Shown: positions 8,245 to 15,869 of the stretch, one piece after another | How positions within the stretch are numbered: the first letter of the stretch is position 1 | Layout of the letters: each line of letters begins with the position of its first letter | Source of the DNA: an uncultured Desulfospira sp. | GTDB taxonomy: Bacteria; Desulfobacterota; Desulfobacteria; Desulfobacterales; Desulfobacteraceae | Length of the DNA: 64,000 nucleotides | Reading direction: 5' to 3' | Assembly: GCA_963663165.1 (NCBI GenBank) | Contig: OY760175.1 | Location: 6,240,001 to 6,304,000, forward strand | The notes under the pieces: model-generated | Databases searched by the model: none | What the model saw: the letters and a program-made list of their open reading frames with translations, nothing else | What the model was told of the DNA's origin: nothing | Translations under genes and position numbers: made by a program

Positions 8245-8658
8245 TTATCCGTCTTTGTTCCCCTCAATAAGCCCCATTTCGACAAGCAGGGAGATAAGTT
8301 TTTTTGGCCTGACAGGTTTGGGAAGATAAGAAGTGGCACCGCCCTGATAGTATGCTTCAAATACGTTTTGGGGATTATCAAGGGCTGTTGTCATGATGAT
8401 CTTAACTTCGTTGGATGGATCTATACCATTGTGCTGCTCTATTTCGCGGATCAATTTTAAGGCTTCCTGCCCATCCATTTGCGGCATCATAATATCAAGA
8501 CAGACCAGGTCATATGGAATTCTGCCAATAATAGCCATTTCAAAGGACTCGACCGCATCTTTGCCGGTACTCACAATATCGCAGGCACCATGGGGATCAA
8601 GTGTGGTTTTCATCAACCTCTGACTTATGGGATCGTCTTCAGCTATTAGAATTCTCAT
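8245..8658 (-). CDS. Single-domain response regulator (CheY-like)
   Basis: ILIAEDD, DLVCLDIMMPQMDG, IIMTTA, YLPKP. Confidence 0.9.
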   Translation of the reverse strand: MRILIAEDDPISQRLMKTTLDPHGACDIVSTGKDAVESFEMAIIGRIPYDLVCLDIMMPQMDGQEALKLIREIEQHNGIDPSNEVKIIMTTALDNPQNVFEAYYQGGATSYLPKPVRPKKLISLLVEMGLIEGNKDG

Positions 8659-8793
8659 GATGGTTCCCCCTGAAGATTTGTTAATAATGTTATTAAATCA
8701 AATATTTAAATAGGGTATCAAAAATACGAAAAAAAAACAAAAAAAATTTTTAAACTTTTGGAGTTGAATAGCACAGTGAAATCCTGTTCGGTT

Positions 8794-9279
8794 CTAAGGC
8801 ATGTTCAAATAAGTGTCAAGTTCGGCCATATCGTCTTCACAAAAAACGAGAATACCCTGCTGCCGCATCAGGGCGGCCGTGACCCCCATTCCCGGAATCA
8901 GGGTGCCGGAAAAGGTGCCGTCGTAGATTTCTGATTTCCCGCAGGAAGGGCTTCGCTGTTTTAAAATGGCCGCTTTCACCCCTTCTTTTACGGCCAAAGC
9001 AAGGGCCTGTTCGGCCCCGCTGATAAAGGCCCGGGAGACGTCCTCTCCCTGGATATTTTTTACCGGGGCACCGCCTTTTAAGACATCATCGCCGGACCCG
9101 CTGATGATTTCCGCCGGCGGCCGGGGCAGGGGAAGGCCGCCGGCCATTTCAGGACAGAATTTCACCAGCCGGCCCTGAAGTTCAAGCTGCCGGATCACGG
9201 GATGGTCCAGGGGGGCAAGCTTTCCGTCGTACCGGACCCTCTCCCCGGCAAGACAAGCTGATATAAGAATTTTTTCCAT
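8794..9279 (-). CDS. DUF523 / 2-thiouracil desulfurase (YbbK) family protein
   Basis: ILISACLAGERVRYDG, FCPE, ILKQRSPSCG, GMGVTAA. Confidence 0.85.
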   Translation of the reverse strand: MEKILISACLAGERVRYDGKLAPLDHPVIRQLELQGRLVKFCPEMAGGLPLPRPPAEIISGSGDDVLKGGAPVKNIQGEDVSRAFISGAEQALALAVKEGVKAAILKQRSPSCGKSEIYDGTFSGTLIPGMGVTAALMRQQGILVFCEDDMAELDTYLNMP

Positions 9280-9293
9280 ATTTAAAAACCACT

Positions 9294-9445
9294 GTAACTA
9301 TTCAGCTAATGCTGAAAACTAAGCAAAACAAGGGTCCGTAACTGTTCATCAGTGCTTCATATTTGTTTAGTCAGACCTTCGTAGCATACTGTTGCTATGT
9401 GAGAAGGCCTGAATGAGCGAAGATGGGGCACTGCTGAACAGTTAC
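9294..9445. repeat. Family B short copy (9294-9322) followed by a 108-nt long hairpin element (9338-9445)
   Basis: Terminal arms GTAACTGTTCATCAGTGC / GCACTGCTGAACAGTTAC (17/18). Pairing continues inward to a GTAGCA-TACTGT-TGCTAT apex. Confidence 0.7.
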
Positions 9446-9452
9446 AAACCAC

Positions 9453-10331
9453 TCAACCCTGATTGGTATGCAGTACCCGGACAATCCCGTCGGCAAGTCC
9501 CTGCATGGGGACGTGGATCTTTTCGCACCGGCCCCAGTCCATGGCCTTAAGGTAAATTTTCGCGCCGGGGATGATGACATCGGCCCGGTCCGGTTTAAGG
9601 TAAAAGCGCATCATCCGCTCTTCTAAAGAATAAGCGGCCAGATCGGCCCGGACCTTTTTGATTTTATCCCGGGTCACCCAGGACCCCGGCCGGCCCTTGG
9701 CCAGCTTGAACAGCTTGTTGATATTGCCGCCGCTGCCGATGGCCTCTACCGGGTCATGGCCCCGGGTTATTTTTTTCAGCCAGGACTTCATATGTTTCCA
9801 GTCCTTGTCCTGGACCCGGTCGTTGAGCAGCCGGATGGTCCCGATATTAAAAGACCGGCTGGCCCTGACCCGGCCGTCGCAGAACAGGGTAATCTCCGTG
9901 CTGCCGCCGCCCACATCCACGAACAGGGCCGCCTTTTGGGGCGAGGTCATGATCCTGTGGCGGTTTTGAAACAGATACCGGGCCTCCTGCTTGCCGTTGA
10001 TGATCTCAATGTCAATACCGGTCTTTTCTTTAATCCGCCGGCAGACGTCATCCCCGTTCTCAGCCGTTCTCATGGCGGATGTGGCGCAGGCCTTGAAGGC
10101 CACGGGCTGAAACGCGTCAATCAGGTTTGAAAACCCAGTCATGGTCTTTTGAAGTTTTTCGGCCCGTTCATCAGAGATCCGCCCGGTTAAAAAGGCATCT
10201 TCGCCCAGGCGGATGGGCATCCTCATCCAGGAAATCTTTTTGACCCGAAGATCGGCTTCTGTTTGCGAAACCATGGACAACAGCAGGCGTACCGCATTGG
10301 AACCGATGTCGATGGCCGCGTATTTAGTCAT
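9453..10331 (-). CDS. ppx: Exopolyphosphatase, Ppx/GppA family (short form)
   Basis: AAIDIGSNAVRL, IRLGEDAF, CATSAMR, FVDVGGGSTE, GSGGN, DRADVIIPGA. Start is 10331 or 10340 because 10352 lies within the predicted -10 box. Confidence 0.9.
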   Translation of the reverse strand: MTKYAAIDIGSNAVRLLLSMVSQTEADLRVKKISWMRMPIRLGEDAFLTGRISDERAEKLQKTMTGFSNLIDAFQPVAFKACATSAMRTAENGDDVCRRIKEKTGIDIEIINGKQEARYLFQNRHRIMTSPQKAALFVDVGGGSTEITLFCDGRVRASRSFNIGTIRLLNDRVQDKDWKHMKSWLKKITRGHDPVEAIGSGGNINKLFKLAKGRPGSWVTRDKIKKVRADLAAYSLEERMMRFYLKPDRADVIIPGAKIYLKAMDWGRCEKIHVPMQGLADGIVRVLHTNQG

Positions 10332-10345
10332 TGAATCCATAATGC

Positions 10346-10379
10346 TTGACATCTTAGTATAATGACGTCATTATATCAA
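10346..10379. promoter_or_regulatory. Overlapping divergent sigma70-type promoters with a perfect 18-bp palindrome (candidate RHH operator)
   Basis: + strand TTGACA(10346)-N17-CATTAT; - strand TTGATA(10379)-N17-TAAGAT; palindrome TATAATGACGTCATTATA at 10358-10375. Confidence 0.7.
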
Positions 10380-10410
10380 GACAGAAAAATCATGCTAACA
10401 AGGATCTCAC

Positions 10411-10572
10411 ATGGCTAAATCCAAAAAGGTGAACACCTCTCTTCGGCTGGAAAAAAAGGTTTTAAAAGAGCTTAAAATCCTGGCCATTGAAAAAGAGACC
10501 AGTGTTCAGGCCATCATGGAAAGACTCATCCACGAATATATTCAAAAAAATAAGGAAAAAACGGACCCATGA
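10411..10572 (+). CDS. 53-aa ribbon-helix-helix DNA-binding protein (CopG/ParG-like), not in the ORF track
   Basis: MAKSKKVNTSLRLEKKVLKELKILAIEKETSVQAIMERLIHEYIQKNKEKTDP; AAGGA upstream; TGA overlaps the CHAD ATG (ATGA). Confidence 0.8.
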   Translation: MAKSKKVNTSLRLEKKVLKELKILAIEKETSVQAIMERLIHEYIQKNKEKTDP

Positions 10573-12080
10573 ATCTACCCGATCCCGGAACGTTTACGTT
10601 TCCGGCCGCCATCAAATTAAAAAGCCTTAACGCCGGACTCAAAGATTCCGGGATGATCCTTGAGGCAAATCCAGTGGAACCGGAGGACGGAATCGTTCTG
10701 GATACCTTTGATTCGGCCGTTTACCATTCACACAGCATCCTGTTGCAAACCGACGGCCGTCTGATCCGGATCTGTTATAAAGCCGGCCCCACGGTTCAGC
10801 CGGCCCCCAAAGGCAGCTGGAAATTCGCCAAAGACCTTCCCGACGGGGAGATAAAAACTTTTTTAGTGTCCCTGTGCCCCTTGCGTGCCCTCATGTCCGA
10901 GGGGAAAATTAAGCTGACCCTGGACACACTGCGGCTCCTGGATGACGAGAAGAAAACCCGCTGCCGAATTGAGGTGGTCTGCATCACCCGGGAGGCGCTT
11001 TCCTGGACCTTTATGCGAACCCTTCCCATGCGTGGTTATAACGCTGCCCATGACCTGATTTGCGACCTTCTCAATAAGGATGCTTTCCCGGCTTCTCCGG
11101 CAGAAGTTTTGAACCTGCCCATTTCAAACTATACCGCCAAGCCGGAGATCCGCCTTTCCCCCAAAGTGCCCATCAAGACCAGCCTGTGTGCTATTGTCAG
11201 TGCCTATCTTAATGTCACCCGCCTTAACGAAACCGGCCTTGCCAATGACATTGACACTGAATTTTTACACCAGTGGCGGGTCAGCCTGCGGAAAGTGCGG
11301 TCCGTGCTGACCCTGTTCAAGGGGGTGGTTGAAGCCCAAACCCTTGACAGGCTGAACCAGGATTTCAAAACCATTATGCAGGACACCAACCTGATGCGGG
11401 ACCGGGACGTTTACCTTTTATCCCGGGAAGACTACATGGCCATGGTGCCCCCTAAGGCACATCCCGGCCTTGAAATCCTCTTTGACCTGCTCGGGCAGGA
11501 GAGAAACCAGGCCTTTGAAAAGGTTAAGGCCATGCTCAGGTCCAAGGCCTACAAAAAACAGTTCAAAGCCCTTCAGGACCTGTTCAACGCCCCCAAAACC
11601 CTGCCGGCGGGGCCAAAGGCGGATGCCCCGTCCCGGGAGTTTGCCGCAGAACTTATTCTCAAACGGTATAAAAAGGTGTGCAAACTGGCAAAGGCCATTA
11701 CGGCCCAGACCCCGGATGAGACCATCCATGACTTGAGGATTCAGTGCAAAAAACTGCGCTACCTTATTGAATCGTCCGCCCCCCTGTTCGACCCCCAGAA
11801 GGGAAAGGACCTGCTCAAAACCCTTAAAGGCCTTCAGGAACACTTAGGGAATTTTAACGACCAGTCGGTCCAGCAGGTGACCTTAGCCCAGTGCCTTGAC
11901 CGGTATGCCGGCAAAGATGAGACCCAAAAGGCCCTGGCCGAAAGCATCGGTGCCCTGACCGCCATGCTTTACACCAGGCAGCTTGCCGAACGTCAGTTGA
12001 TTATTGACAACCTTTCCCAGTTTTACAGCCCCGAGACCCGGGACGCCGTTAACCAGCTTTTTGACCCAAAGGAGGCTTAA
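10569..12080 (+). CDS. CHAD domain protein (polyphosphate-binding family)
   Basis: DIDTEFLHQWRVSLRKVRS, RDRDV, IHDLRIQCKKLRYLIE, LQEHLGNFND. Confidence 0.88.
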   Translation: MNLPDPGTFTFPAAIKLKSLNAGLKDSGMILEANPVEPEDGIVLDTFDSAVYHSHSILLQTDGRLIRICYKAGPTVQPAPKGSWKFAKDLPDGEIKTFLVSLCPLRALMSEGKIKLTLDTLRLLDDEKKTRCRIEVVCITREALSWTFMRTLPMRGYNAAHDLICDLLNKDAFPASPAEVLNLPISNYTAKPEIRLSPKVPIKTSLCAIVSAYLNVTRLNETGLANDIDTEFLHQWRVSLRKVRSVLTLFKGVVEAQTLDRLNQDFKTIMQDTNLMRDRDVYLLSREDYMAMVPPKAHPGLEILFDLLGQERNQAFEKVKAMLRSKAYKKQFKALQDLFNAPKTLPAGPKADAPSREFAAELILKRYKKVCKLAKAITAQTPDETIHDLRIQCKKLRYLIESSAPLFDPQKGKDLLKTLKGLQEHLGNFNDQSVQQVTLAQCLDRYAGKDETQKALAESIGALTAMLYTRQLAERQLIIDNLSQFYSPETRDAVNQLFDPKEA

Positions 12081-12084
12081 ATCC

Positions 12085-12819
12085 GTGAAACTCATTGCCT
12101 GCTATTCCAACAAGGGCGGGGTCGGCAAAACTGCGGCCTCGGTCAACCTGTCCTATGCCAGCGCCCTTTGGGGCAACAAAACCCTGTTGTGCGACCTGGA
12201 CCCCCAGGGGGCTTCGGGATTTTACTTTCGAGTAAAGCCGTCCAAAAAGCTTACGGACCAGACCTTTTTCAAGGATACCCGGAAATTTGCAGACGCCATC
12301 CGGGCCAGTGACTATGAAAACCTGGATCTGCTGCCGGCCAATTTAAGTTTCAGGGATTTTGACATTCTGCTGTCAAGGATGAAAAAAAGCCGGACCCGGC
12401 TCGATAAACCCTTAAAATCCGTGGACGGGGAATATGATGTGATTATTTTGGACTGCCCCCCCAACATCTCCCTTTTGTCTGAAAATGTCTTTAAGGTGGC
12501 CGATCAGATTGTGGTACCGGTGATTCCCACCACCCTTTCCCAGCGAAGCCTTGAGCATCTGTACGATTTTTTCAAGGACAATGGGTATAAGACGGGTAAA
12601 ATACAGCCGTTTTTCTCCATGGTCCAGCAAAGCAAGTCACTTCATATAACCACCATGGAACAGATCCGGGCCGGCCATAAAAAAGTAATGAACACCAGTA
12701 TTCCCTTTTCCACCCATATTGAACGGATGGGCATCTACCGGGCCCCGGCCTTAAGCTATGCCGGAAAGGAGACCGCTGTGGCCGCCTATATGGACTTGTG
12801 GAAAGAAATTCAAAATTAA
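12085..12819 (+). CDS. ParA/MinD-family ATPase (orphan, no ParB nearby)
   Basis: GTG start after AAGGAGG; deviant Walker A YSNKGGVGKT, LCDLDPQG, IILDCPP, VPVIPTTLS. Confidence 0.9.
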   Translation: MKLIACYSNKGGVGKTAASVNLSYASALWGNKTLLCDLDPQGASGFYFRVKPSKKLTDQTFFKDTRKFADAIRASDYENLDLLPANLSFRDFDILLSRMKKSRTRLDKPLKSVDGEYDVIILDCPPNISLLSENVFKVADQIVVPVIPTTLSQRSLEHLYDFFKDNGYKTGKIQPFFSMVQQSKSLHITTMEQIRAGHKKVMNTSIPFSTHIERMGIYRAPALSYAGKETAVAAYMDLWKEIQN

Positions 12820-12826
12820 CGGCCAC

Positions 12827-12861
12827 ACAGCTAAAGGCTAACAGCTGAAAGCTAAAGGCTC
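12827..12861 (+). repeat. Five imperfect heptamers (ACAGCTA/AAGGCTA)
   Basis: ACAGCTA AAGGCTA ACAGCTG AAAGCTA AAGGCTC between parA and the CYTH gene. Confidence 0.65.
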
Positions 12862-12882
12862 TAAGACAAGGTCCCATTTATC

Positions 12883-13344
12883 ATGAAAGAGATTGAACGA
12901 AAATTTTTGCTGTCCCAGATGCCGGACATTCCTTTGCAATCCACCGTGTCGGTCCGGCAGGGCTATATTACCGAATCTGAGGACTCTGTGGAGGTCCGGC
13001 TGCGCCAGAAAGGGGACCGCTTTTTTATGACCGTTAAAAAGGGCCAGGGCCTTGTCCGGGAAGAGGGGGAAATCAGCATTACACCAGAAGATTTTAACCG
13101 GCTGTGGCCCATGACCCGGGGAAGACAGGTGGAAAAGACCCGGTCCAAATCTGATTTAGGAAACGGACTGGTCGCGGAAATCGATGTCTTTTCAGGGGAT
13201 CTTGAGGGCCTGATGCTTTGTGAGGTGGAGTTCAAAGACCCGGACCAGGCTGAACAATTTACTCCCCCCTGGTGGTTTGGCACCGATGTGACCCAGGACA
13301 GCCGGTACAAAAACAAGAGCCTTGCCCAAAAGGGGATTCCTTAA
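12883..13344 (+). CDS. CYTH domain (triphosphate tunnel metalloenzyme) protein
   Basis: EIERKFL, RQGYI, VRLR, EIDVF, CEVEF, DVT.DSRYKN. Confidence 0.9.
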   Translation: MKEIERKFLLSQMPDIPLQSTVSVRQGYITESEDSVEVRLRQKGDRFFMTVKKGQGLVREEGEISITPEDFNRLWPMTRGRQVEKTRSKSDLGNGLVAEIDVFSGDLEGLMLCEVEFKDPDQAEQFTPPWWFGTDVTQDSRYKNKSLAQKGIP

Positions 13345-13358
13345 CAAGGAGAAACACC

Positions 13359-14282
13359 ATGGATCGACGGGATTTTTTAAAAAAGGCTATTGGCGGCGGG
13401 ATTGCGGCCGGGTCCGCCCTTGCCCTCACAGGGGCCGGCAGGCTCTGGGCTTCGCCCCAAAAAAGCCCGGGGGAAGTGGTTGACCTGGTGGCGGTCAGGG
13501 GAGGGGAACCGGACGAGATGTTTGATGCAGCCATCCCTTCTCTGGGCGGGATTAACGCTTTCGTGCCCAGGGGCAGCCGGGTCCTGGTCAAGCCGAATAT
13601 CGGCTGGGATGCCCCGCCTGAACGGGCCGGCAACACCCATCCGGCCCTGGTGGGTCACATTATCGGACAATGCCTTCTGGCCGGGGCAAAAGAGGTGACG
13701 GTATTTGACCACACCTGTGACAACTGGCGGCGCTGCTATAAAAACAGCGGCATAGAAGATGCGGTAAATGCTGCCGGCGGGAAAATGGTATCCGGCGATA
13801 ATGAGGGGTATTACAAAAGCGTTCCCGTGCCCAGAGGGGTGCGGCTCAAAGAAGCCAAAGTCCATGAGGCCCTCCTTAATGCGGATGTGTTCATCAATGT
13901 GCCGGTACTCAAGCACCACAGTTCTTCCATGGTGACCATCGGCATGAAAAACCTGATGGGGGTGGTCTGGGACCGCTGGTCCTGGCACCGCAACGACCTT
14001 CACCAGTGCATTGCGGATTTTGCGTCCTTTAGAAAACCCGACCTCACGGTGGTGGACGCCTATAATGTGATGAAACGCAACGGCCCGAGAGGGGTGTCGG
14101 TCAGTGATGTGGTCTTATTGAAAGCCCAGGTCCTTTCCACAGACCCGGTGGCGGCCGATGCGGCAGGGGCCAGACTCTTTGGGGAAGAGCCCGGCGATAT
14201 CCGCCACATAAGGATCGCGTCTGAAATGAACCTGGGAACCATGAACCTTGAAGCCCTGTCCATCAACCGCATCAAACTGTAA
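13359..14282 (+). CDS. DUF362 domain protein with twin-arginine signal peptide
   Basis: ATG after AAGGAG; MDRRDFLK; VLVKPNIGWD, NTHPALV, INVPVLKHH, MKNLMG. Confidence 0.85.
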   Translation: MDRRDFLKKAIGGGIAAGSALALTGAGRLWASPQKSPGEVVDLVAVRGGEPDEMFDAAIPSLGGINAFVPRGSRVLVKPNIGWDAPPERAGNTHPALVGHIIGQCLLAGAKEVTVFDHTCDNWRRCYKNSGIEDAVNAAGGKMVSGDNEGYYKSVPVPRGVRLKEAKVHEALLNADVFINVPVLKHHSSSMVTIGMKNLMGVVWDRWSWHRNDLHQCIADFASFRKPDLTVVDAYNVMKRNGPRGVSVSDVVLLKAQVLSTDPVAADAAGARLFGEEPGDIRHIRIASEMNLGTMNLEALSINRIKL

Positions 14283-15869
14283 ATGAAGCTTTCCCATATC
14301 AAGCGGTTCCGGGTGTCCATGGCCATTGTTTTTTGGGTGTCCACCGCCGTTCTTTTCCTGGATCTTTGGGACACCGGGGTCAGTACCGTTGCCGGGGAAT
14401 TGCTTTTTTTGCAGGTCGTCCCGTCACTGCTCAACTTCCTGAACCATGGGGCCGTTGAGGGCGCAGGGTTTATGATTGTTCTTTTGATCACCCTGGTGTT
14501 CGGCAGGATTTACTGTTCGGCGATTTGCCCCTTGGGGATATTCCAGGATATGATTGCCCGGCTGTTTTCAAAAAAAACGCCCCCGGGCAAACAACGGTAC
14601 CGGTATGCCTTTTCACCGCCTTTCACCGTCCTGCGGTATACCATCCTGTGCCTGACAATTCTCACCTTTATGCTGGGCAGCGGACTGATACTGAACCTTC
14701 TGGATCCGTTCAGCAGTTTTGGCCGGATTCTGGCCCATGTTTTCCGCCCCATTGCCGTCGCGGTAAACAACCTTGCAGTGCCCTTGACTGACGTTCTGGG
14801 CGTCCCGGCTCTTTTCCTTGTCCAGTGGCCGGTGCTGGCCCCGGTGTCCTTAGGTGTTGCCCTGGCAGCCCTGGGCCTTTTGGGATGGATGAGTGCCCGG
14901 CACGGCCGCCTTTGCTGCAACACCATCTGCCCTGTGGGAACCCTGCTTGGCCTGGTTTCAAAGGTGTCTCTGGTCAGAATCGGCATTGACACGGGGGCCT
15001 GCAAGTCCTGCGGCCAATGCATGAGCGTATGCAAGGCCGGCTGTATTGATGTAAAGACCAAACAGGTGGATATCAGCCGGTGCGTTGCTTGCTTTAACTG
15101 CCTTTCCGCCTGTCCTGGCCAGGCCATGACCTACAAGCCGGGGCGACAGCCTGCAAAAATGAACGTCAATGTTCCGGCTGGCCGAAGGGGATTCATGCTT
15201 GCCCTTGCGGCGGGTGCTGCCGGCATGGCGTCGACAAGGCTTTGTGCCCAGCCCAACCCTTTGCCGGCTCAGGCCAGGCCCACCACCATTCCTGAAAAAA
15301 GAACCTGCCCCATATCCCCGCCTGGCTCTGTGGGTATTGACCGATACACCGGCATCTGCACGGCCTGCCATCTGTGCGTCTGTGCCTGCCCGTCCCGGGT
15401 GCTGGTGCCCTCGATGTTTTCTTTCGGGCTGTCCGGGGTCATGCAGCCGAAAATGGATTTTTCTTCTGGCCACTGCAACTATGACTGCACGGTCTGTTCA
15501 CAGGTCTGCCCCACCAATGCCATCCAGCCCCTGTCAACGCAAAAAAAACGACAGACCCAGGTGGGCACAGCCAAATTCATCAAAGAAAACTGTGTGGTCT
15601 ATACGGACCAGACCAACTGCGGCGCCTGCTCGGAACACTGCCCCACCAAGGCGGTTCACATGGTGCCCTACCTCAATGTTGACGGCCGGAAGCTGGTGAT
15701 TCCCCAGGTAAACGAAGCCATTTGCGTGGGTTGCGGCGGGTGTGAACATGCCTGCCCCACCCGGCCTTACAAAGCCATTTATGTGGACGGCAACCCGGTT
15801 CACCGTGTGGCGGATAAACCGTTAGAACAAAAACTTGATGCCGATACCGGGAAAGACTTTCCGTTTTGA
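14283..15869 (+). CDS. Membrane polyferredoxin (NapH/MauN-like membrane part plus multiple 4Fe-4S domains)
   Basis: GRIYCSAICPLG, CNTICPVG, several CxxCxxCxxxC(P) motifs, PPGS; internal GRRGFML motif. Confidence 0.85.
   Translation: MKLSHIKRFRVSMAIVFWVSTAVLFLDLWDTGVSTVAGELLFLQVVPSLLNFLNHGAVEGAGFMIVLLITLVFGRIYCSAICPLGIFQDMIARLFSKKTPPGKQRYRYAFSPPFTVLRYTILCLTILTFMLGSGLILNLLDPFSSFGRILAHVFRPIAVAVNNLAVPLTDVLGVPALFLVQWPVLAPVSLGVALAALGLLGWMSARHGRLCCNTICPVGTLLGLVSKVSLVRIGIDTGACKSCGQCMSVCKAGCIDVKTKQVDISRCVACFNCLSACPGQAMTYKPGRQPAKMNVNVPAGRRGFMLALAAGAAGMASTRLCAQPNPLPAQARPTTIPEKRTCPISPPGSVGIDRYTGICTACHLCVCACPSRVLVPSMFSFGLSGVMQPKMDFSSGHCNYDCTVCSQVCPTNAIQPLSTQKKRQTQVGTAKFIKENCVVYTDQTNCGACSEHCPTKAVHMVPYLNVDGRKLVIPQVNEAICVGCGGCEHACPTRPYKAIYVDGNPVHRVADKPLEQKLDADTGKDFPF

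Follow-up and report, generated by a model that had tools for sequence, protein, structure and literature searches.

A Soj-like ParA ATPase co-inherited with a long CHAD protein in Desulfospira, a candidate organiser of polyphosphate granules

The ParA-CHAD pair

Here we describe a locus in the genome of an uncultured Desulfospira sp. (GenBank assembly GCA_963663165.1), in which the gene for an orphan ParA-type ATPase directly follows the gene for a long protein with a CHAD domain. It lies in a 64,000-nt stretch (contig OY760175.1, positions 6,240,001 to 6,304,000, forward strand), which we call the window and which corresponds to 6.24-6.30 Mb of the 6.74-Mb single-contig genome; unless given in Mb, coordinates refer to the window. 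The two proteins form a co-inherited pair, and with a probability of roughly one half this pair is an ATP-driven organiser, which sets the position or the number of polyphosphate (polyP) granules. The sequence itself establishes the pair and its recurrence, and it shows that the ATPase motifs and the polyP-binding residues are intact.

The CHAD gene (10569-12080, plus strand) encodes a 503-aa, phosin-like protein, in which Pfam and the structure model distinguish a probably degenerate CYTH half and a long CHAD domain. A gap of 4 nt separates its stop codon from the GTG start (12085) of parA (12085-12819, plus strand), the gene for the 244-aa Soj-like ATPase, which was delineated by Pfam AAA_31 and a structure model and is preceded by GGAGG 10 nt upstream of its start. 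On the other side, the stop codon of a gene for a ribbon-helix-helix (RHH) protein overlaps the CHAD start as ATGA. A stand-alone CYTH gene follows parA after 63 nt, and the exopolyphosphatase-like gene ppx is divergent from the whole run. This arrangement, including the ATGA overlap and the 4-bp gap, had been described in an earlier note on the same DNA and was confirmed by open reading frame (ORF) calls and Pfam, with all matches over cut-off (Ppx-GppA 8e-37, RHH_1 3e-5, CHAD 5e-59 for residues 208-439, AAA_31 1e-37, CYTH 3e-6).

The nearest relatives of the locus are found in Desulfospira and Desulfobacter. The host genome harbours a single CHAD gene and a single ppx of this type, while ppk1, ppk2 and a sixA-like gene are located elsewhere. 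The earlier note had also reported that parB is missing from the locus, and this was upheld: ParB_N has two matches genome-wide, both distant from the window, one of them adjoining a canonical Soj-type parA, and no parS match was present in the window at up to three mismatches to the consensus. Since the canonical parA and parB sit at 4.83 Mb, 1.4 Mb from the RHH-CHAD-ParA-CYTH locus, the ParA described here is an orphan.

Linkage to polyP genes and co-inheritance

Proteins scoring more than 120 bits in the genome search were assigned to the ParA family. Its gene neighbourhoods were analysed at 18 close loci, at all 12 other Desulfobacterota matches, at 46 further of the 80 places in the phylum of the gammaproteobacterial carrier (picked by score and size of contig, not at random) and at two second copies, using neighbour profiles built from the fetched loci. 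A CHAD gene was found within 300 nt of parA in 17 of 19 loci with at least 60% ParA identity and in 12 of 14 loci with 44-60% identity (together 29/33), as compared to 6/37 at 38-44% and 0/8 below 38%. Four close loci deviate, and two of them can be explained, namely L017, which is cut by the contig and has its CHAD gene on L018 of the same assembly, and L116, in which parA lies directly behind ppk1. The latter arrangement is also found in L167, and in three loci parA is located 10-29 nt behind a gene for a double-domain PPK2 (TIGR03708). Broken CHAD, ppk1 or ParA frames were seen in the metagenome-assembled loci L011, L012 and L116, due to either assembly error or decay.

Linkage was also observed in other samples. 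Among the six loci of the phylum sample of the Pontiella carrier, CHAD is upstream of parA in four and CYTH downstream in one, with neither in the remaining one. An independent metagenome draw yielded 15 family loci, eight of them with CHAD upstream, one with ppk1 5 nt upstream and six with none of these (two with short flanks), while none of 65 lower-scoring ParA control loci, many of them with short flanks, had any of these neighbours. In the reverse direction, parA is directly downstream of the long CHAD gene in 10/12 Desulfobacterota genomes and at 8/9 Pseudomonadota places; in one further genome, one long CHAD copy is convergent with parA and a second copy stands alone. The outer neighbours vary freely and include ppx, ppk1, ppk2, Nudix, CYTH and PhoU genes and a gene for a SixA-like His phosphatase. 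In the closest kin ppx alone is divergent (from RHH in seven Desulfobacteraceae-type relatives), and in other relatives its place is taken by ppk1, ppk2, sixA-like or Nudix genes. At the genome level, the ParA family also co-occurs with CHAD genes of any kind (62/78 vs 65/323), but these numbers are inflated by kinship and did not serve as a test. For L010 the label "Myxococcota", which would have added a phylum, was dropped, as its phylum search redrew Desulfobacterota genomes.

We consider a functional tie of the ParA family to polyP highly probable. The linkage of close ParA homologues to polyP genes, on which the earlier note had made its interpretation depend, holds for the close clade, with its adjacent CHAD genes, congruent trees and a control set free of such neighbours; it does not extend to the wider family, which is mostly unlinked.

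According to quick trees, calculated without a mixture model, ParA and CHAD share 25 of 37 splits over 40 pairs, including 13/13 starred ParA splits, without strong conflict, while shuffled labels gave a mean of 0.2 splits in common. In the starred 30-row ParA clade to which the window belongs, a polyP-related neighbour is present in 28/28 locus rows, and in both trees Desulfobacterota, Pontiella and Gammaproteobacteria are mixed within one starred clade. Further, the pair is found on six Paracoccus plasmids with ParA identities of 57-68%, and two of these loci read RHH-CHAD-ParA-CYTH-Nudix. Matching plasmid records are rare (9/72,556), and in two Paracoccus records no rep or parB is annotated within 7 kb of the cassette. 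Because the trees agree, clades mix phyla and plasmids carry the pair, CHAD and ParA can be taken to move as a unit, which indicates coupling, not contact.

Fusion proteins are a further route by which the family is connected to polyP genes. The 120 best long ParA matches, which stand for clusters at 90% identity with many kin among them, comprise 80 with a CYTH-like tail after ParA (some with the ExExK motif, many degenerate), 20 with CHAD-protein sequence and 20 with other domains, mostly PF00497. A fusion of ParA, a linker and a full CHAD protein, P0311 with two members, looks real. Nineteen apparent fusions with CHAD first (for example P0153) were not counted, as most of them look like frameshift read-through of overlapping genes; at six of the seven junctions examined, frameshift-like sequence precedes an intact ParA start. 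P0291, P0297, P0303 and about 13 more clusters, several of them many-membered, combine a family ParA with a PF00497 solute-binding domain, and P0132 and P0275-P0277 combine it with a sucrose-phosphatase-like HAD domain (PF05116; one cluster has 28 members).

The CHAD protein

The CHAD protein matches CtCHAD of C. tepidum (3E0S/6QV7) with 149 bits and 31-32% identity. Residues 194-503 of its structure model (pLDDT 92) superpose on 3E0S with a Z score of 34 and a root-mean-square deviation (rmsd) of 1.5, and the model has the two four-helix bundles, the central pore and the His/Arg/Lys polyP contacts of the CHAD fold. The CtCHAD residues whose mutation weakens polyP binding include H253, R256, R260, R296, R418, Y419 and K441 (PMC6537752). 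They correspond to H234, R237, R241, R277, R397, Y398 and K420, which are invariant in 33 homologues; further residues mutated in CtCHAD align to K417, K365, K368 and K369. We infer that the CHAD domain binds polyP, and we place the protein in the same long-CHAD subfamily as CtCHAD. For the latter the CHAD half alone was solved (PDB 3E0S, 6QV7, 6QVA), and the accessible text of the study mentions no ParA partner (PMC6537752).

The N-terminal domain (residues 5-185) was assigned to the CYTH fold by fold search, with a Z score of 8.3 to 2GFG, which is barely above background (rmsd 4.3, 159 aligned residues); several TTM proteins were matched by Foldseek (E 3e-4 to 1e-2). Profile-profile comparison with CYTH families gave a short shared D-T-x-D motif only, at a probability of at most 21. 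The hallmark of active CYTH enzymes is the N-terminal metal-binding motif ExExK (PMC8233210). It is missing here: the first strand has the sequence TFTFP, and the 33 homologues share no motif of this kind. The conserved positions are instead D45-T-F-D48, R106, K129, R133 and R155-G-Y. Thus, the CYTH half is likely inactive and catalytically degenerate. The domain order is that of E. coli YgiF, from which the CHAD protein differs by the missing ExExK in its CYTH half. This 185-residue domain goes beyond the earlier note, as does a palindromic box between ppx and RHH, which is described below.

The ParA ATPase

The ParA model (pLDDT 92) matches Soj/ParA structures with TM scores of 0.86-0.90 at 24-29% identity. 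In 94 aligned sequences the motifs K10-GGVG-K15-T16, D37/D39 and D123 are kept, with K10 in 93/94 and K15, D37 and D123 invariant, so that the locus ParA has the signature lysine and the Walker A' and B aspartates of a deviant Walker A ATPase. It has neither an N-terminal helix-turn-helix (HTH) nor a C-terminal tail, and hence none for a membrane helix. It scores below every NCBIfam cut-off (ParA_partition, 78 bits vs 180), and by tblastn the other ParAs of the host genome score less than 90 bits against the family ParA. We assign the locus ParA to a distinct Soj-like family, which was present in 13/301 Desulfobacterota genomes including the host, in 78/401 genomes of the phylum of the gammaproteobacterial carrier and in 6/151 of the phylum of the Pontiella carrier, nearly always with one copy per genome.

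The family is basic overall. The mean net charge of CHAD-linked members is +10.9 vs +2 in three other ParAs of the host genome (+8 in the locus ParA), and basic residues are conserved at R90, K184, 214 and R219 and in the segments 49-59 and 98-108.

Proposed mechanism and alternatives

In the mechanism that we propose, the CHAD protein would coat the polyP granule via its CHAD domain, and ParA would dock on the CHAD protein and set granule position or number. Since other ParAs of the family carry fused CYTH-fold domains, the degenerate CYTH-fold domain of the CHAD protein is proposed as the ParA contact. This contact would trigger ATP hydrolysis, and ParA would leave a polyanionic matrix, probably the nucleoid, which it would contact by a basic surface of a non-canonical kind. 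Ppx and the NeuTTM-like stand-alone CYTH protein would degrade long polyP chains and the end product tripolyphosphate (PPPi), and the RHH protein, on its one box, would repress both divergent promoters.

Several observations weigh against such an organiser, first of all the ParA surface. We assume that R189 of Soj corresponds to the arginine of the D-x-R motif and that the second arginine (R218), in PRNVRL, has a DNA-binding role. In our family the PRNVRL basic patch is replaced, and an acidic residue (D or E) takes the place of the second arginine in 56/94 members; the first arginine, that of the D-x-R motif (R183), is retained in 72/94 and K184 in 89/94. In addition, the subclade of the window has lost the arginine aligned with the D-x-R motif and reads QQSK. 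The host chromosomal ParA retains both motifs. Because the patch is replaced and this arginine is gone, ordinary nucleoid binding by the family is doubtful; the family may bind DNA in another way, or it may bind polyP. In ParA-type positioners the matrix is contacted by a C-terminal basic DNA interface or a membrane helix (PMC11407121), and the Soj exchange R189E is reported to abolish DNA binding (bioRxiv 2023.04.12.536610). Further, the N-terminus of the CHAD protein is ordered and unconserved and not a basic, flexible activator tail. Adjacent CHAD, ppk or CYTH genes are missing in 28/37 loci at 38-44% ParA identity and in 8/8 below 38%, a starred 17-row ParA subclade (L069-L091, L102, L120) is mostly located beside rnfH-truA and unlinked to polyP genes, four long CHAD copies have no ParA gene nearby, and some long ParA matches are fused to the unrelated PF00497 and PF05116 domains. 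Physical linkage alone would also lead to co-transfer. Finally, according to the accessible text of one study, polyP spacing in S. elongatus requires no ParA-type ATPase (PMC13081873), and granule spacing in P. aeruginosa depends on AlgP (PMC9239181). The granule-spacing system with CHAD as the adaptor of ParA, which the earlier note had envisaged, is partly supported: the linkage to polyP is strong, but some of the canonical arginines for DNA binding have been lost.

The ParA proteins of the rnfH-truA subclade have a motif of their own, N-x-V-N-x-x-K-P-I-H, and many of their genomes carry a stand-alone CHAD gene elsewhere. Because three of the loci are within 5 kb of mamK, the hosts are likely magnetotactic cocci. 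For these bacteria large polyP inclusions were reported (PMC8786505), and a role of the subclade ParA there is possible.

A possible alternative, which we hold to be distinctly less probable than an organiser, is that ParA is a regulator, which would switch polyP enzymes or the assembly of the granule coat in an ATP-dependent manner without moving granules. The diversity of its partners (CHAD, PPK1, PPK2 and CYTH fusions) would suit a regulator of polyP proteins, as would the eroded canonical DNA patches. Moreover, FleN and BcsQ have the same fold and regulate their partners, and FlhG was described to switch partners (PMC11407121). However, the nearest structures and sequences are those of Soj/ParA and not of FleN or BcsQ, the surface of ParA is still strongly basic, and the partner that varies least is a binding protein without catalytic function.

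The polyP granule could also be the matrix itself. It is rather unlikely that the family as a whole has swapped the nucleoid for polyP, with CYTH-fold domains, whether free, CHAD-fused or ParA-fused, serving as the ATPase-activating adaptor. The corresponding model for the pair, in which ParA-ATP dimers would bind polyP directly and would be stripped off by the CYTH-fold/CHAD protein, so that granule surfaces would be patterned or granules tied to DNA or to one another, is improbable as well. It would explain why the Soj-type patches are replaced while the other basic positions (R90, K184, R219, 49-59 and 98-108) are conserved, and polyP is what all partners have in common. Nevertheless, R183 and K184 are mostly kept and could still bind DNA.

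A ParA with an unrelated job that just happens to travel with polyP genes is very unlikely. The many unlinked family members and the fusions to unrelated domains would fit this explanation, but translational coupling has been kept in different phyla despite the change of all other neighbours, the association with different polyP genes arose repeatedly and independently, and it was seen in none of the 65 control loci. The organiser remains our preferred explanation, and a last alternative is best considered together with the RHH protein.

The RHH protein and its box

The RHH gene (10411-10572, plus strand; ORF call and Pfam RHH_1) encodes a protein of 53 aa, which has about six residues ahead of its beta-strand and no sequence match in the PDB. 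Repeat and motif scans revealed an operator-like palindrome at 10352-10381, between ppx and RHH, as the likely RHH binding site. Its perfect core, TATAATGACGTCATTATA, is at 10358-10375, and the conserved box TGACGTCATwATwTCA, derived from the window, L007 and L063, at 10363-10378. The palindrome overlies divergent sigma70-like sites. The region 9200-13500 has four promoter-like sites, a number at chance level (4 vs 2.8 +/- 1.5), and three of these coincide with the palindrome. The exact box is unique in the 6.74-Mb genome, and no repeat array is present in 9000-14000, where we found a single box only. The box is present in 9/9 loci with RHH, seven of which are close kin, and in 0/26 without it (20 with enough flank); upstream of RHH in both Paracoccus loci it has two and three mismatches.

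Among 35 CHAD-ParA loci, RHH was found in nine by tblastn and profile search (20 of the 26 RHH-less loci have enough upstream DNA). Thus, RHH is an accessory protein and likely an autoregulator of the operon, and the box appears to be the operator at which it controls both divergent promoters, that of ppx and that of RHH-CHAD-ParA-CYTH. A type Ib-like partition pair, in which the box-bound RHH would activate ParA and the unit would segregate a DNA locus, as a relic (the alternative of the earlier note) or as a chromosome-to-granule tether, is therefore very unlikely: the short, HTH-less ParA, the upstream RHH, the conserved box and the cassette on Paracoccus plasmids are in line with it, but RHH is missing from most loci, a single box lies on a promoter, the residues before the RHH strand are few, and plasmid carriers are scarce and without annotated rep or parB in the two records mentioned above.

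The ppx and CYTH genes and the flanking regions

The ppx gene (9453-10352, minus strand; ORF call and Pfam) encodes a single-domain Ppx/GppA exopolyphosphatase-like protein with 209 bits to TIGR03706, which is under the cut-off of 307. Its best PDB match is 7EPQ, a putative exopolyphosphatase (1e-70), and translation may in fact begin at one of two inner ATG codons, at 10340 or 10331.

The stand-alone CYTH/TTM protein (12883-13344, plus strand; Pfam CYTH and NeuTTM match) has an intact ExExK motif, EIERK, at residues 3-7 and matches NeuTTM (NE1496; 2FBL/3TYP) with 158 bits (E 1e-45) over 149 of 153 residues. We classify it as a close relative of NeuTTM, which is an inorganic triphosphatase (PMC8233210); in YgiF and AtTTM3, PPPi hydrolysis requires the ExExK glutamates (PMC4641920). 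A second NeuTTM-like CYTH gene of the genome (C1 2220397-2220897) is 34% identical to that of the locus.

In the ParA-CYTH gap, at 12827-12853, there is a 27-nt element with 14 genome copies at up to two mismatches and 112 at up to four, which we regard as a dispersed REP-like repeat. Directly past the ppx stop, at 9333-9450, an inverted repeat with 48-nt arms (77%) is likely a small dispersed element, as one arm has about 50 genome matches at up to eight mismatches. The flanks (8245-9279 and 13359-15869) are ordinary and encode a response regulator, a 2-thiouracil desulfurase, a DUF362 protein and a polyferredoxin-like membrane protein; these genes are not conserved next to the cassette in relatives.

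Relation to known systems

The McdA/McdB system likewise consists of an orphan ParA-type ATPase beside a would-be cargo binder without parB, and its sandwich-dimer ATPase motifs are intact too. McdA matches the locus ParA in fold (TM 0.84-0.85), while its sequence similarity is distant (33 bits). Here, however, the partner is a CYTH-fold/CHAD protein, the cargo would be an inorganic polymer and the DNA-binding surface is altered, and the system is known from sequence. Chromosomal Soj/ParA is nearest in both fold and sequence, but the locus ParA has no adjacent parB and a replaced PRNVRL patch, and the genome has its own parAB. With the type Ib systems ParF/ParG and delta/omega, the locus shares a short ParA and an RHH protein; it differs by an RHH that is dispensable across the clade, by the single box and by the CHAD gene between RHH and ParA.

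The closest published arrangement is the folD-ppk-parA-CYTH/CHAD cluster of Acidithiobacillus, in which ppk, parA and CHAD are conserved together (PMC6416229, PMC10892726). In contrast to our CHAD protein, its CYTH domain still has the residues of the active site and was interpreted as an adenylate cyclase. The likeness is known from gene order, and in the accessible text of these studies the parA is labelled as a chromosome or plasmid partition gene, without a granule role. Beyond this synteny, the openly accessible main texts covered contained no positioning role for ParA with CHAD or polyP. This agrees with the earlier note, in which no characterised dedicated ParA for polyP granules was known. 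As far as searched, the ParA-CHAD module is uncharacterised, whereas the ppk-parA-CHAD synteny itself is already published. The word polyphosphate has no occurrence in the accessible text of a 2024 review on ParA/MinD cargos (PMC11407121).

Significance

How polyP granules are spaced and inherited in bacteria is stated to be unresolved (PMC13081873). The ParA module cannot be a general answer, because the family is present in only a minor part of the genomes of the three phylum samples. If the proposed role is true, a dedicated ATPase partnered with a granule-coat protein would bring an inorganic condensate into the group of actively placed cargos, and if the matrix swap were true, an inorganic storage organelle would for the first time have an ATP-driven organiser. 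The ParA-CHAD locus names the genes to delete and makes the idea directly testable in culturable carriers, among them the Desulfobacter type strains and Paracoccus marcusii and P. aestuarii with their plasmids.

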